Shown: positions 122 through 42,437 of the stretch, one piece after another
Layout of the letters: each line of letters begins with the position of its first letter
Numbering within the stretch: position 1 is the stretch's first letter
Virus record (IMG/VR): IMGVR_UViG_3300010224_000001
Span: 224,001 to 288,000 of that record
From: a virus
DNA: 64,000 nucleotides
Reading direction: 5' to 3' (one strand)
Notes under the pieces: model-generated
Seen by the model: the letters and a program-made list of their open reading frames with translations, nothing else
What the model was told of the DNA's origin: nothing
Databases searched by the model: none
Program-made: the position numbers and the translations under genes

Positions 122-907
122 TTAATTTTCCTTATTATCTTTAGGTGGGTGTTCGGAAATATCACGAACCGCTTTCATGACATCCACTTCTTCTAATGAA
201 ATCTGAGGAAGTAGATCAAAACTGTATTTGATCGCGTGTCCAGATTCATTCAACTTTCGTTGTTTACCACGTTGGAAGGTCAGCACTTTACCAAAGTGTT
301 CATTTACAATGAAAGCAGCACTTACGTAAGTATCGAGAAGATCAGGTTTCTTTTCACCACCGATATCACTTTGCTTAAGATTCACGCCTTTGACGTCGAT
401 AGGTGCAAGCAGGGAGAAATCAGGAGCACCAATTTGCGGAACGAACGTGTCAAACGTGTAGTGATCAGGCACTTTAGGAACACTGAACGCGATGTTTGCA
501 TCACGCGCAAAACTACGCAGGTTGTCAAACAACTTGTCAAACTCGTGATTCTCTCGAGGCGTGTCGACGAAACTGAATGGTTTGAAATCGCCAGGTAGTT
601 CATCATGGACGTCAGCATGAATACTACGCGGATTCATACCGCGTTTACCAAAATCGAAGAACCGATATTCCGTACGTTCACCAGTCGCAATAAGCTTGAA
701 AATATTGGAAGACATAGTTGACATTTCTTCCATGAATTCGCGATAATCATTATCGATATCAGGGAAAGGTACAAATGTCGCCAATGTATAAACTCGCACA
801 GCAAGCATACGTACTTCCTGATCGGTCGGAGCAATACGACGTAATTGTTCTGCTTGACCAAATGCGACCTTGGCAGCATATTCGCGATGTTGTTCTTTGC
901 TTAACAC
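122..907 (-). CDS. hypothetical protein
   Basis: 261 aa ORF, AAGGAG SD. Confidence 0.7.
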   Translation of the reverse strand: MLSKEQHREYAAKVAFGQAEQLRRIAPTDQEVRMLAVRVYTLATFVPFPDIDNDYREFMEEMSTMSSNIFKLIATGERTEYRFFDFGKRGMNPRSIHADVHDELPGDFKPFSFVDTPRENHEFDKLFDNLRSFARDANIAFSVPKVPDHYTFDTFVPQIGAPDFSLLAPIDVKGVNLKQSDIGGEKKPDLLDTYVSAAFIVNEHFGKVLTFQRGKQRKLNESGHAIKYSFDLLPQISLEEVDVMKAVRDISEHPPKDNKEN

Positions 908-7092: not shown

Positions 7093-7168
<76 letters not shown>

Positions 7169-9602: not shown

Positions 9603-9851
9603 TTAACCATGTGCTATTTTGTTCTGATAATCATTAGAGAACACATGCGGTTCACCAATCGATTTACGAGCCTGTTCAATTAGAGCATCTACGTTATCGT
9701 AATCGATGTAGTAGAAGGTTTGACCGTCTTTAACGCGATGTCGTGGCAACTTCTCTAAGTCTTTACAGAGTTTAATCAACGCGTCTTTAGCTGTAGTATC
9801 TGTAATTGGGAATTGGCCTTCCCCTGCAAAACTATCATTACTGAAACACAT
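9603..9851 (-). CDS. hypothetical protein
   Basis: start at MCFSND after GGAG SD. Confidence 0.55.
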   Translation of the reverse strand: MCFSNDSFAGEGQFPITDTTAKDALIKLCKDLEKLPRHRVKDGQTFYYIDYDNVDALIEQARKSIGEPHVFSNDYQNKIAHG

Positions 9852-9870
9852 GACTTCTCCGTAAAGTGTT

Positions 9871-10008
9871 TGGTCGGGCGTTCTTGGAATCGAACCAAGG
9901 ACCTTCGTCTTGTGGTGAGGTTCCCCTCTGGCCGATCGCCTAAGCGGTCGCATCCGCCGAAGCGAATGGAATATTGGACGATGCTCTACCGAACTGAGCT
10001 AAACCCCG
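9871..10008 (-). ncRNA. tRNA-scaffold RNA 1 (67-nt three-hairpin cargo in anticodon loop)
   Basis: acceptor CGGGGTT/AAC(G)CCCG, D arm GCTC/GAGC, stem TCGTC/GACGA around 9910-9976, T arm, ACCA. Confidence 0.85.
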
Positions 10009-10691: not shown

Positions 10692-10752
10692 GGTTTACCG
10701 TTACAAATGAGGGTGATAATCATAGTAATTGGTGAGACTAAACCTGTTGAAT

Positions 10753-10917
10753 TGGTGGGACGTTCCTAGATTTGAACTAGGGACCTCGATCTAGTTTAGA
10801 TGGAACCTGATTAGGGTTCTGCCTTTAACCACTCGGCCATACCTCCTAACGGAGATAGAGGGATTCGAACCCTCGGATCTTTGGTTGATCGCGCTCTAAC
10901 CGCTGAGCTAAACTCCC
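10753..10917 (-). ncRNA. tRNA-scaffold RNA 2 (permuted Ser-like tRNA nested via its variable arm)
   Basis: outer GGGAGTT/AAC(G)TCCC-ACCA; insert 10792-10886 has T arm, GTTA-closed acceptor, D arm, anticodon arm. Confidence 0.9.
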
Positions 10918-10938
10918 GGATACTTCTACTACAATGTT

Positions 10939-11110
10939 TGGTGGAGCGATGCAAGATTCGAACTTGCGACCTCTGTCTAAGCTTTGACTAGCAGGATTGT
11001 GCTCTAACCATCTGAGCTACTAACGGACGTTGACACCCGTTAGATCGGACTTGAACCGATGACCCCAATCGTGAATAAGACAGCGTTCTACCTGACTGAA
11101 CTAATCCCCC
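10939..11110 (-). ncRNA. tRNA-scaffold RNA 3 (permuted tRNA nested anticodon-to-anticodon)
   Basis: outer GGGGGAT/ATC(G)CTCC-ACCA; insert 10978-11078 has T arm, closed acceptor CTAACGG/CCGTTAG, D arm. Confidence 0.9.
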
Positions 11111-11128
11111 ATGTACTACTTTGAAACT

Positions 11129-11288
11129 TGGTGGAGCGATCTAGGAATCGAACCTAGGACCTCTGCCTGAGTCGAATGCTCTACCAGCTGAGCTACCGAT
11201 AAGTAACGAAGTGTTACCTACCGAGCGGGACTCGAACCCGCGACCCGTCGATTAGAATGGCAGCGCTCTATCACTGAGCTAATCCCCC
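11129..11288 (-). ncRNA. tRNA-scaffold RNA 4 (permuted tRNA nested anticodon-to-anticodon)
   Basis: outer GGGGGAT/ATC(G)CTCC-ACCA; insert 11168-11258 has T arm, 12-bp closed acceptor, D arm. Confidence 0.9.
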
Positions 11289-11307
11289 GCAAACTGCTTT
11301 GTGAAAC

Positions 11308-11437
11308 TGGTAGGGCGCTTCTGGATTTTAACCAGAGACCTCCGTCTAGTTAACCAATAACCACACCCCCGTTGGGAGGTACGGCTGGACTTGAACCAGC
11401 GATTTGACGGCGCTCTAACAGGCTGAGCTAAGCCCCT
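11308..11437 (-). ncRNA. tRNA-scaffold RNA 5 (minimal T-acceptor-D module nested)
   Basis: outer AGGGGCT/AGC(G)CCCT-ACCA; insert 11347-11405. Confidence 0.85.
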
Positions 11438-11446
11438 AATGAAACT

Positions 11447-11617
11447 TTACTTAAGAACACACATTAAAGTGATGCTCTGCTTTTTATCACTGTTAGCAAT
11501 CTTCGCATTCTTAGTAGCTTCGATGCATTGCTCCCAGCTTTGCATCGGAAACTCTTTCTGATCTATACTCCAACCATCGGAATGGATCCAGATAAGAAAT
11601 ACTGCTAATGCCTTCAT
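11447..11617 (-). CDS. small hypothetical protein (56 aa)
   Basis: MKALAVFLIWIH...WEQCIEA...LMCVLK read by hand; not in the supplied ORF track. Confidence 0.5.
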   Translation of the reverse strand: MKALAVFLIWIHSDGWSIDQKEFPMQSWEQCIEATKNAKIANSDKKQSITLMCVLK

Positions 11618-11638: not shown

Positions 11639-11894
11639 TAGTGGAGAGATTGCGGGAGTTCAACCCGCGACTTTGATGGAACCCTAAAGCTGCAGCACTT
11701 GGTTTAGTTAAAGGTGAGTTACGATAATTTACCGCACTTGACCACCCAAAGCTTATGCATAAAACCCAAACTGTAAGAAAACCATGAAAGAAAACTTACA
11801 GAGGTTTTATAGAAGGTAACCTACAAACTTTAGAAGTATAATCTGCACCGAAGCCTTCCGCCAAGAAGGAGTCTTGCTTCTCGACTATCTCTCC
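11639..11894 (-). ncRNA. 256-nt tRNA-like RNA with 183-nt variable arm
   Basis: GGAGAGA/TCTCTCC-ACTA, D arm GTC/GAC, CCTTC/GAAGG arm, T arm GCGGG-TTGAACT-CCCGC. Confidence 0.75.
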
Positions 11895-40736: not shown

Positions 40737-42437
40737 TTACATAAAGCCGCTATCTACACGTTTGGTGACCTTCAGGATATTCACCAAGGTGTATTTGAAA
40801 CGAACGCCACACAACTCAACTGCACGGTTTAACGCCGTTACGAATTCAGGACGAAGAGAGATGCGCTCGCTGATTTCGTAAAGAGAAAGCTTACCCGGCA
40901 CTGTCATATGTTTCATAGCCAGCGCAGTATAGATCTCCATACGCTTTTCAACGATGCTGTTGATATCAACACCCATGTGGTTAGTAGCTTTATAGCCAGA
41001 GGGAGCTGTAAACATGCCGTTAATACCTTCGTCATTATGGACCTTACCCGTCGGAGAATGGCTATTGATGTACTCGTCCATTTCCTTGGAATCCATACTC
41101 GAACTAGCATTCAAGAAATGGAAGTTCCGCAAGTCCTGCACGCCGACGTTAGTAATAACATCGCCAATGGTAACTACTTCATTGGTGTGATAAATTACAC
41201 TCTCAGGCGCTAAGGAATTGTCATTGAAGTACCGGTCAAAACCGCCGTTCGTGAAATTGTTGATGATGGTTCGCATTTCACGATGTGCTCCTTCGCTACC
41301 ATTTTTTAGTGCCGCCAACATCCCCAGCAGATCTTCCGACGAACTTGCCAATGATGGGTAGTCGAAGGAAACGATTGCATTCTCATGACATGCCTTACGC
41401 ATGAATTCAAGCACATTGTTTTCATCAACTTGCTCGAACTCCTTGCTGATCCGTTTGTTACCCCCCAAAAGTTTATTAACGCAGAGAATGCCATCCGAGT
41501 CTTTAAGGTTAGTGAAACCGTTAACCCAAATATACTCGTTATTGATCTTCTGCACCGAAGCCAAAATGGTAAGAAGGACTTCGTTATCAGAACCTTCAGT
41601 GCTTACCGCGGTTACGATAAAGCGAGGAATATACTTCTTAACTTCATCCTTCCCATCCCAGACCAAATCGAAATAACCATACGCAGTACCGAGTGGCGAG
41701 TTGGAGTTGTACACCGGATGATTGATTTGAGCACTTACTTCGTAAAGACTGATTTTAACATCAGCCCGGACCGGCGAACCGTAGTAGTTGTGGATCTTTT
41801 CTTGACAGTTAAAATCGATCTCCACATCAAAACGGCTATTTCTCGAAACCTCGGCCAGATTGAAAGGAACGAATTCCTTGTCATTGCGACTCATGCCGGT
41901 GGAGATCTCAGAGAGTGCTTTATTGCAAAGCGCCATTACGGTTTCAGAATTGCAGAAATCAACTTCCCAGGGAATGTAAGTTTCACCGCAGTGGATAGCA
42001 GGAGCACTTTCCTTTTCAAGTAACTCATTACGAATATACTGATTGATATCAACCATGAATTCACGATGAATAAGGTCGACAGCTTGCCGCGAAACCAGCG
42101 GCTTCTGGGTTCTGTTGAACAAGGTCGCGCCGTTTGGCGCCTGAGCCGGAAGATGAATGATGTGGTAGAAAAGCTGCCCGCTATCCTGCGGACGAACTGT
42201 CATCAGAATTGCGGTGAAGACGCCATCGTTTTTGTAATCGAAAGGGAAGGCACCGACGGACACATTCGACATCATGCTCTCTGCTTCGCTAGCGAACGCA
42301 TCCAGTTTGGTTTTGAATTCCGTCAGGAGACTGTTGCTAGACTTCGGACCGAAAGCGTGGCGTTTGAATAAATCTTTGAAATGATTACGCGGTTCTTGTT
42401 GGTTTTGATAGCCTTGCTGTTGTTTGCTGTTTTCCAT
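40737..42437 (-). CDS. chimallin (phage nucleus shell)-like protein, probably a divergent paralog
   Basis: GSPVRAD, GYFDLVW, YIPRFIVT, DLRNFHFLN, RISLRPEFVTAL match ChmA motifs as recalled. Confidence 0.6.
   Translation of the reverse strand: MENSKQQQGYQNQQEPRNHFKDLFKRHAFGPKSSNSLLTEFKTKLDAFASEAESMMSNVSVGAFPFDYKNDGVFTAILMTVRPQDSGQLFYHIIHLPAQAPNGATLFNRTQKPLVSRQAVDLIHREFMVDINQYIRNELLEKESAPAIHCGETYIPWEVDFCNSETVMALCNKALSEISTGMSRNDKEFVPFNLAEVSRNSRFDVEIDFNCQEKIHNYYGSPVRADVKISLYEVSAQINHPVYNSNSPLGTAYGYFDLVWDGKDEVKKYIPRFIVTAVSTEGSDNEVLLTILASVQKINNEYIWVNGFTNLKDSDGILCVNKLLGGNKRISKEFEQVDENNVLEFMRKACHENAIVSFDYPSLASSSEDLLGMLAALKNGSEGAHREMRTIINNFTNGGFDRYFNDNSLAPESVIYHTNEVVTIGDVITNVGVQDLRNFHFLNASSSMDSKEMDEYINSHSPTGKVHNDEGINGMFTAPSGYKATNHMGVDINSIVEKRMEIYTALAMKHMTVPGKLSLYEISERISLRPEFVTALNRAVELCGVRFKYTLVNILKVTKRVDSGFM

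Follow-up and report, generated by a model that had tools for sequence, protein, structure and literature searches.

What kind of RNA is encoded where two tRNA-like bodies face each other head to head, with no anticodon loop between them? This question is raised by a locus in a 64,000-nt stretch of viral DNA (the window), which comprises bases 224001-288000 of the complete 322,570-bp virus record IMGVR_UViG_3300010224_000001, a record with direct terminal repeats. An original prediction, made from the letters of this stretch, had described positions 10978-11078 as a head-to-head tRNA with an asymmetric linker. On the minus strand, these positions are exactly the 101 nt that separate the two strands of a 5-bp outer anticodon stem, where a regular tRNA has a 7-nt anticodon loop. 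The whole element, here called unit C, is a tRNA-shaped shell of 172 nt (10939-11110, minus strand) in which a second tRNA upper body replaces that loop. It is the third of five tandem minus-strand tRNA-shell RNAs (units A to E) lying among the ordinary tRNA genes of the phage.

On balance, we lean towards the view that 10939-11110 (minus strand) is a gene for an RNA of about 172 nt that does not decode, is processed as a tRNA and mimics tRNA. The evidence for the nested fold is given first, followed by the alternatives that bear on its interpretation.

A tRNA body nested in another tRNA body

The insert of unit C is a circularly permuted tRNA upper body consisting of a T arm, a closed acceptor hairpin, a D arm and a 5-bp stem (Table 1). 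All strings named in the original prediction occur on the minus strand in their predicted places, and the 8-nt and 17-nt joining strands that it described (TTATTCAC and CTGCTAGTCAAAGCTTA) lie between the outer and inner stems. The inner acceptor is a perfect 7-bp helix, as proposed, with the amendment that in RNAfold the hairpin can lengthen to 10 bp with a 4-nt TCAA loop. In sequence, both elbows retain G18, G19, T54, T55, C56 and the G53-C61 pair. The predicted RNA presents two tRNA elbows head to head, without an anticodon loop. No open reading frame (ORF) of at least 50 amino acids lies between 10692 and 11446 on either strand.

The minimum-free-energy (MFE) structure calculated by RNAfold for the 172-nt unit recovers the nested fold apart from the partner of the inner stem. 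In this structure, GAUUGG pairs with CUAGUC of the 17-nt strand, and CAAUC is not used. The inner GATTG/CAATC stem of the original prediction is thus found when the 101-nt piece is folded alone and is lost in the MFE of the whole unit.

Standard finders do not report the element. ARAGORN with default settings makes no tRNA call at unit C, an Rfam scan of the window at gathering thresholds gives no match there, and no ribozyme family matched it. The tRNA model RF00005 matches each half of unit C partially, over model positions 8-63 (25.3 and 23 bits; gathering score 29). ARAGORN finds no tmRNA in the window, tag reading frames having been sought through ARAGORN only, and the only Rfam match of tmRNA type is one to tmRNA_permuted, which runs across a spacer and scores 15 bits against a gathering score of 47.

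Table 1. Elements of unit C in 5' to 3' order, shells of the array, and homologues in related phages. Positions refer to the window for units A to E and to the individual phage records otherwise, except where stated.
Feature	Position	Strand	Cargo or evidence
Unit C, outer acceptor 5' strand GGGGGAT	11104-11110	-	Partner: 3' strand of 8 nt, with one G bulged between 4 bp and 3 bp
Unit C, outer TA (U8-A9), between acceptor 5' strand and outer D arm		-	Sequence
Unit C, outer D arm GTTC-AGTCAGGTA-GAAC	11085-11101	-	D stem covaries with GCTC/GAGC of unit B
Unit C, single G between outer D arm and CTGTC		-	Sequence
Unit C, outer anticodon-stem 5' strand CTGTC	11079-11083	-	Helix 3: 5 of 5 pairs change on both sides, 10 shells
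Unit C, 5' connector TTATTCAC, 8 nt	11071-11078	-	Sequence
Unit C, inner stem GATTG (39-43-type strand)	11066-11070	-	Partner CAATC
Unit C, inner variable loop GGGTC, C48 opposite G15	11061-11065	-	YrlA-model alignment and sequence
Unit C, inner T arm ATCGG-TTCAAGT-CCGAT	11044-11060	-	Helix 4: 100% paired across 10 shells
Unit C, inner acceptor hairpin CTAACGG-GTGTCAACGT-CCGTTAG, 7 bp	11020-11043	-	Helix 5: 7 of 7 pairs change on both sides
Unit C, inner acceptor strand CTAACGG	11037-11043	-	
Unit C, inner acceptor loop GTGTCAACGT	11027-11036	-	
Unit C, inner acceptor strand CCGTTAG	11020-11026	-	
Unit C, inner TA, between CCGTTAG and inner D arm		-	Sequence
Unit C, inner D arm GCTC-AGATGGTTA-GAGC	11001-11017	-	YrlA-model alignment; fold of 101-nt piece
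Unit C, single A between inner D arm and CAATC		-	Sequence
Unit C, inner stem CAATC (27-31-type strand)	10995-10999	-	Fold of 101-nt piece
Unit C, 3' connector CTGCTAGTCAAAGCTTA, 17 nt	10978-10994	-	Holds CTAGTC, alternative partner of GATTGG
Unit C, outer anticodon-stem 3' strand GACAG	10973-10977	-	Pairs with CTGTC
Unit C, outer variable loop AGGTC and T arm GCAAG-TTCGAAT-CTTGC	10951-10972	-	Helix 7: 100% paired, 4 of 5 pairs change on both sides
Unit C, outer acceptor 3' strand ATCGCTCC (ATC-G-CTCC, bulged G), discriminator A, encoded CCA	10939-10950	-	
Unit A	11308-11437	-	T arm, hairpin, GG-containing strand
Unit B	11129-11288	-	Permuted tRNA upper body
Unit C	10939-11110	-	Permuted tRNA upper body
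Unit D	10753-10917	-	Class-II-like cloverleaf joined via its variable arm
Unit E	9871-10008	-	60-67 nt, three small non-tRNA hairpins
G003 nested unit	181-325		Model R1
RTH11 nested unit	75849-75998		Model R1
FLC9 nested unit	129228-129378	-	Model R1, sequence read by eye
FLC9 shell	129085-129202		Non-tRNA cargo
RP12 tRNA-shaped genes with inserts	2426-2533 and about 2636-2745 of the extracted RP12 locus		Non-tRNA inserts

Conservation of the nested fold

Homologues of a neighbouring 224-aa protein pointed to related jumbo phages. A covariance model, R1, was built from unit C, its paralogue unit B, and one unit each of the IMG/VR record G003 and of Xanthomonas phage RTH11, and was run over 14 whole phage records. 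Nested units were found in four of these (this phage, G003, RTH11 and Burkholderia phage FLC9), and shells with any cargo in six, with G001 and Ralstonia phage RP12 added. Unit C, as a member used to build the model, scores 161 bits. All nested units and shells found in related phages sit within tRNA gene clusters; in the RTH11 record, the region of the nested unit is unannotated.

Covariation was assessed in an alignment of 10 shells fitted to R1, covering 37 pairs and 343 cells. Standard pairs occupy 96.8% of the cells, as compared with a shuffled mean of 64.7%, and 29 of the 37 pairs change on both sides; these counts are biased towards structure, since the alignment was fitted to the model, and the sequences are related to one another. 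None of 500 shuffles reached the observed values, and slid registers were 35-46% paired. Compensating changes separate the paralogues B and C in three outer stems (D, anticodon and T) and in two inner ones (T and acceptor).

The inner 5-bp stem dropped out of R1, and its pairs were therefore counted by eye on four nested units. With four different sequences (GATTG/CAATC, TCGA(C)/(T)TCGA, TTATA/TATAA and TCTTT/AAAGA), 19 of 20 cells are paired. The original prediction depended on conservation of the inner D and T loops. At the sequence level, all five nested units keep the inner T loop, as TTCRAGT or as TTCGAAT, and the GG within the inner D loop. The comparison shows that the predicted nested fold is conserved, with two canonical elbows, one free A-CCA end and no anticodon loop.

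Relation to YrlA RNAs

The original prediction had called the element the closest match to the topology of YrlA, with the Ro-binding stem replaced by a tRNA shell. Chen et al. (2014, PMC4201824) define YrlA RNAs by a tRNA-like module, by a GNCGAAN0-1G motif thought to bind Rsr, and by a gene adjacent to that for Ro60. The module is a close mimic of tRNA without a free CCA, as Wang et al. (2018, bioRxiv 10.1101/312249) describe it.

The YrlA model RF02553 aligns over its positions 1-114 with 10970-11083 (minus strand). The original prediction had called for this search, which returned a full-length alignment, but at 34.0 bits, below the gathering score of 69 (E = 8.8e-6 when 421 nt were searched and 1.5e-4 when 7 kb were). 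The T arm, the closed acceptor, the D arm and a 4-bp stem match, and the outer 6-bp helix of the model falls on the anticodon stem of the shell. The 7-bp middle helix, to which Ro binding is assigned, is deleted on its 5' side and unpaired on its 3' side. The nucleotides that make tertiary pairs in the YrlA module are present in unit C (G15/C48, G18, G19, T54-A58 and G53-C61). The full-length alignment is obtained in unit C only, unit B matching model positions 27-81. Together with the flanking acceptor, D arm, T arm and ACCA, the alignment bears out the YrlA-like topology and the replacement of the Ro-binding stem by a tRNA shell.

YrlA and unit C thus have in common a permuted tRNA upper body that keeps the tertiary-pair nucleotides, a helix standing in for the anticodon stem, and an inner module without a free CCA. 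However, YrlA has the Ro-binding helix, the GNCGAAN0-1G motif and an adjacent Ro60 gene, whereas unit C has at its base a second, complete tRNA upper body that ends in a free A-CCA of its own, and it reaches half the gathering score. On its predicted fold, unit C shares the YrlA topology and resembles the module in shape, and is not a member of the YrlA family.

Could unit C nevertheless be a genuine YrlA-type Y RNA, bound by host Ro60/Rsr through the internal loop between the two stems? The full-length alignment would fit such an RNA, and YrlA RNAs in phages are reported in PMC4201824. Apart from the low score and the deleted middle helix, however, a regular-expression search for GNCGAAN0-1G gives no match in unit C. 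The Ro60 gene that the original prediction proposed to look for was not found, there being no candidate for the TROVE domain (PF05731) in the complete 322,570-bp record, with a control that was positive in 2 of the 14 genomes. None of five relatives has a YrlA match above the cut-off. We consider a Y RNA very improbable.

Decoding and splicing

Another explanation is an intron-containing tRNA gene with two products. The permuted inner tRNA would be excised by an endonuclease as an intron at position 37/38, RtcB of the phage or the host would join the exons and circularise the intron, and the inner tRNA would later be opened at its acceptor loop, for which the permuted tRNA genes of the red alga Cyanidioschyzon provide a model. 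Three features point in this direction and weigh against a non-decoding RNA. With introns allowed, ARAGORN reads unit C as a tRNA-Asn(AUU) in which position 37 is C and an intron of 94 nt occupies the canonical 37/38 site. The 3' connector opens with CUGCUAG, which has the form of an anticodon loop (U33, GCU, A37). Finally, the phage encodes a full-length RtcB (432 bits; 191211-192338 of the record, minus strand, outside the window), one of the genes for which the original prediction had suggested a search. Under the same settings, unit B is read as Arg(UCU) with an 84-nt intron, the removal of which leaves the canonical loop A-U-UCU-A-A, and unit E as Val(CAC). The three ORFs neighbouring the phage RtcB gene have no Pfam match.

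The splicing machinery found in the phage is, however, incomplete. The tRNA splicing endonuclease family PF01974 has no match in the phage (the control was positive in four archaeal genomes), and no archease was found there; to our knowledge, bacteria generally lack a tRNA splicing endonuclease. No bulge-helix-bulge could be drawn by eye at the junctions, where the MFE structure shows open internal loops; no dedicated bulge-helix-bulge search was made. Among five relatives, RP12 alone has RtcB. The enzyme is missing from G003 and RTH11, the two of these with nested units, and also from G001, which has shells.

The predicted products also argue against splicing. Joining the ends of unit C would give the outer loop UUAUUCA, that is, AUU with C37. 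Units with the same type of cargo in different phages receive different ARAGORN anticodons and intron positions, and no anticodon is conserved among homologous units. The length of the 5' connector varies from 8 nt in unit C and 7 nt in unit B to 1 nt in the G003 and RTH11 units. The latter two units have 1 + 6 connector bases, and because these amount to only seven, they cannot supply two anticodon loops. Ordinary tRNA-Arg(UCU) and tRNA-Ser(GCU) genes are already encoded by the phage, and the acceptor stems of the shells are irregular, unlike those of its ordinary tRNAs. The inner acceptor hairpins have 7-12 bp (10 bp when extended in C, 12 bp in B) and tight loops, of 4 nt in G003, FLC9 and unit D, which argues that they stay closed. 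We regard splicing as distinctly unlikely.

Proposed role and opposing evidence

If unit C encodes a non-decoding tRNA mimic, the shell would let the host tRNA machinery excise the RNA from a polycistronic transcript, by RNase P cleavage, 3' trimming and CCA maintenance, and would keep it stable. The product might then occupy proteins that read tRNA elbows or acceptor ends, serving as a decoy, sponge or tether and not in translation.

Several further observations weigh against this reading. Folding energy is no better than that of shuffled sequences (z = -0.75 for the 172-nt unit and -1.30 for the 101-nt piece), and ensemble pair probabilities are modest (outer anticodon stem, about 0.46; GAUUG:CAAUC, 0.055). 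A look-up of sequencing runs for this stretch listed no RNA run, and all shares were 0.12 or less. The verified nested units number only five (B, C, G003, RTH11 and FLC9), and two of these, B and C, are paralogues. The bias of the fitted alignment belongs here also, as do two observations on alanine determinants: of the 10 shells, B and C alone have G3.U70 (alignment pair 3-222 is GU in two), and the outer D loop has U at position 20, where PMC9976931 gives G20 for bacteria. Because the folding energy is unremarkable, the case that the structure exceeds chance rests on the match to the YrlA covariance model and on covariation among homologues. The comparative evidence is the stronger support for the predicted fold, as compared with the model match of a single sequence.

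The same energies would suit debris, in which two tandem tRNA genes were scrambled by recombination and are decaying, as would the fact that each half scores as a partial tRNA. However, compensating changes preserve all helices of the nested fold in the paralogues and in three other phages, and both elbows keep their canonical nucleotides. By inspection, the pairings that tandem tRNAs would form in cis are impossible (GGGGGAT against CTAACGG, and CTGTC against GATTG). Decay of this kind is scarcely credible as an explanation.

A different possibility concerns the acceptor ends. The outer stems of units B and C carry G1-C72, G2-C71, G3.U70, G4-C69, A73 and CCA. The determinants of bacterial tRNA-Ala listed in PMC9976931 are G2-C71, G3.U70, G4-C69 and A73, and also G20. 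Because the two outer stems carry these acceptor determinants, alanylation would be possible, and units B and C may be chargeable by alanyl-tRNA synthetase. Charging with alanine is not a family feature, because the other eight shells lack G3.U70. When the 3' part of the shell was compared with Escherichia coli genomes by blastn, a single insignificant match to tRNA-Arg resulted, which gives no evidence of descent from tRNA-Ala.

These determinants raise the possibility of a chargeable acceptor-end decoy. Either the outer alanine-type end, or both ends after opening by RNase P and addition of CCA, would be aminoacylated or would act as bait for host toxins or for enzymes that modify or cut the 3' ends and acceptor stems of tRNAs. 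The perfect 7-bp inner acceptor invites comparison with Mycobacterium smegmatis YrlA, in which Chen et al. (2014, PMC4201824) attribute RNase P cleavage and CCA-tailing to a 7-bp stem. However, G3.U70 is confined to the two paralogues, and the inner hairpins, with their extended helices and 4-nt loops, look built to stay closed. A decoy of this kind seems to us a minor possibility.

As a long shot, the five shells might form a phage toolkit in which unit C would be cut by RNase P at both acceptor stems and CCA-tailed. The result would be an RNA of two base-paired pieces that lacks an anticodon and can be aminoacylated at both ends. It could soak up host immune effectors that attack tRNA acceptor ends, or bridge two tRNA-binding enzymes. 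Were this true, Y RNAs would have in it a natural relative that is independent of Ro and has a biology of its own.

The tandem array and its neighbourhood

Every shell of the array opens with an acceptor strand of 7 nt and U8-A9, and contains a D arm, an anticodon stem of 5 bp, a variable loop with the sequence AGGTC and a T arm. Its 3' acceptor strand, of 8 nt, forms 4 bp and 3 bp around one bulged G; A and CCA follow. Across the 10 shells, the bulged acceptor register reaches 94.3% pairing, and each of its seven pairs shows changes on both sides. In the register drawn by ARAGORN, which has no bulge, pairing is 67.6%, and this register was rejected. In G001, two shells with other cargo have a bulged T and a bulged A at the same position. 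In contrast to the irregular shells, the ordinary tRNAs of the phage, such as Thr (7096-7168), have regular acceptor stems.

Unit D is reported by ARAGORN and Rfam as two weak tRNAs, of which one is Ile(AAU) at 10757-10846 and the other, at 10850-10917, scores 33.5 bits. Across a GTTA loop, the 3' end of one is paired to the 5' end of the other, and CGATC forms a stem with GATCG; it follows that unit D is one shell with a class-II-like cloverleaf. An arrangement as two tandem cloverleaves with swapped acceptors was dropped once R1 paired CGATC with GATCG. A listed ORF (9603-9953) overlaps unit E, and the upstream part of this ORF is therefore probably noncoding. The outer D loop of unit B is AGTGATA, without the GG pair, and its outer elbow may thus be weaker than that of unit C.

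At the head of the array lies an RNA of about 256 nt (11639-11894, minus strand), the ends of which (GGAGAGAT and ATCTCTCC) pair and adjoin a T-arm-like hairpin, GCGGG-TTGAACT-CCCGC. It has a weak tmRNA match of 12.9 bits, over 11651-11687 only. The spacers 3' of CCA ends (11289-11307, 11111-11128 and 10918-10938, minus strand) share the motif (A)GTTTCA followed by a GTAGTA-like stretch. This motif is present in this phage, G003, RTH11 and RP12, also 3' of ordinary tRNAs, and may be a processing or promoter signal. Promoter-like sites (6, as compared with 3.7 +/- 2.5) and terminator-like sites (4, as compared with 2.4 +/- 1.8) are at chance level. The sequence AACUA stands directly 5' of the 3' strand of the outer anticodon stem in units A and D, and likewise in the nested units of RTH11 and FLC9; G001 and G003 have AACCA(A) in this place, and AACUA is absent there from units B and C.

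Among nine neighbouring proteins, Pfam identified no families. A 566-aa ORF (40737-42437, minus strand) matches the PHROG annotated as 'nuclear shell protein' (E = 3.7e-22). When 50,697 phage records were searched by tblastn, its only match was one Bacillus phage protein, and for this reason we make no claim that this phage forms a nucleus.

Further searches for homologues

In the same 14-record search, R1 found only ordinary or tandem tRNAs in PaBG and Noxifer, one tRNA-sized match (76 nt) in SXP01, and no match at E <= 1e-8 in Lu11, HRDY3 and pEa_SNUABM_54. In RP12 (AP017924), an annotated tRNA-Asn lies between two tRNA-shaped genes that carry no annotation and have non-tRNA inserts in their anticodon loops (Table 1). 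In Vibrio phage BONAISHI (54530-54659, minus strand), a permuted module with a T arm, closed acceptor, D arm and CCTTG/CAAGG stem lies outside any shell.

Searches by sequence similarity were less productive. Comparison of 10700-11460 with 50,697 phage records by blastn in a mode for distant matches gave no match, and blastn of the RTH11 units against phages gave generic tRNA similarity only. Searches for related loci with single proteins (the 224-aa neighbour and the 566-aa ORF) found none, whereas an alignment of the 224-aa protein as query gave five. Three of these five loci (L006, L008 and L010) were scanned with Rfam, and none had tRNA-like RNA near the gene; ARAGORN, applied to all five, found tRNAs in the RP12 copy only; it follows from these scans that the shell array is not syntenic with the 224-aa gene.

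Sequence patterns were also tried. A pattern for the shell 3' end found no stretches in viral contigs and 26 in metagenome contigs. In these 26, R1 gave nine matches, at 61 bits at most; of these, neither the one that was folded nor the two longest, which were run through ARAGORN, proved to be nested. A pattern of the G003/RTH11 type found G003 alone. A generic pattern (T loop, gap, D arm) matched more than 118 IMG/VR stretches, of which 80 loci with 88 matches were examined. Among these 88 listed matches, the hairpin was complementary at 7 of 7 positions in five and at 6 of 7 in eight. Full complementarity is far commoner than chance (5 of 88 listed matches, with about 0.1 expected), and the best R1 matches in those 13 loci were ordinary tandem tRNAs. 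Six IMG/VR loci among the matches listed (L177, L173, L133, L129, L123 and L142) have a YrlA-like permuted module on a plain long helix, with no shell. Because other viral contigs also have permuted modules that sit on plain helices, the tRNA shell is the distinctive feature of unit C.

Comparison with other tRNA-like RNAs

Unit C recalls several other systems. In the tRNA-like domain of tmRNA, as in unit C, an alanine-type end (G3.U70, A73, CCA) and a T arm close a large RNA, and the anticodon arm is replaced. Unlike tmRNA, unit C keeps a full D arm, has a bulged acceptor stem and receives no ARAGORN tmRNA call. Permuted and intron-containing tRNA genes are known in archaea and algae, and they share with unit C the inner order of 3' half, linker and 5' half and an insert at the canonical 37/38 position. 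They differ in that, for unit C, no endonuclease was found in the phage, no bulge-helix-bulge could be drawn by eye, and the connectors of its relatives cannot rebuild two anticodon loops.

Engineered tRNA scaffolds carry cargo on the anticodon stem of a tRNA body for the production of recombinant RNA, and the tRNA body confers processing and stability. The shells likewise carry cargo on the anticodon stem, including non-tRNA cargo in unit E and in shells of G001, FLC9 and RP12. Unlike the engineered scaffolds, they are natural and phage encoded, have a conserved irregular acceptor stem, and usually have a tRNA body as cargo.

The species 1 and 2 RNAs of phage T4 (rnaC and rnaD; NC_000866) are stable RNAs of the T4 tRNA cluster that have no assigned function and, like unit C, are non-tRNA RNAs that adjoin phage tRNA genes. 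In the fold of rnaC, a terminal stem is flanked by a hairpin that resembles a T arm, GGGUUCGAAUCCC. However, R1 has no match to rnaC or rnaD at E <= 1, and these RNAs have no second tRNA body and no D arm. The tRNA-like structure of turnip yellow mosaic virus (PMC9976931) is another virus-encoded tRNA mimic recognisable by host tRNA enzymes. It is the 3' end of a plant-virus genomic RNA and has a pseudoknotted acceptor stem, whereas unit C is a free-standing gene of a DNA phage with two cloverleaf-type bodies.

Conclusions

We class unit C, on the basis of its predicted structure, with the tRNA-mimic noncoding RNAs. A literature search turned up no account of phage RNAs in which one tRNA is nested within another; the phage YrlA RNAs listed in the supplement of PMC4201824 lay outside this comparison and may bear on novelty. 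Tools for finding tRNAs, when introns are allowed, call the shells intron-bearing tRNAs with spurious anticodons, which is a caution for annotation. Homologues, not annotated in the respective records, are carried by the cultured phages RTH11 and FLC9, and their function is therefore directly testable at the bench.

Free-standing tRNA-mimic RNAs have been known mainly from YrlA, with Ro60, and from tmRNA. In unit C, a YrlA-type permuted module is mounted on a second tRNA body, and not on a Ro-binding helix, in phages without Ro60, and sister RNAs in tandem carry other cargo on the same shell. These predicted structures suggest that phages use the tRNA body as a natural scaffold for expression and stability, and that the YrlA-type module has a partner that is independent of Ro.

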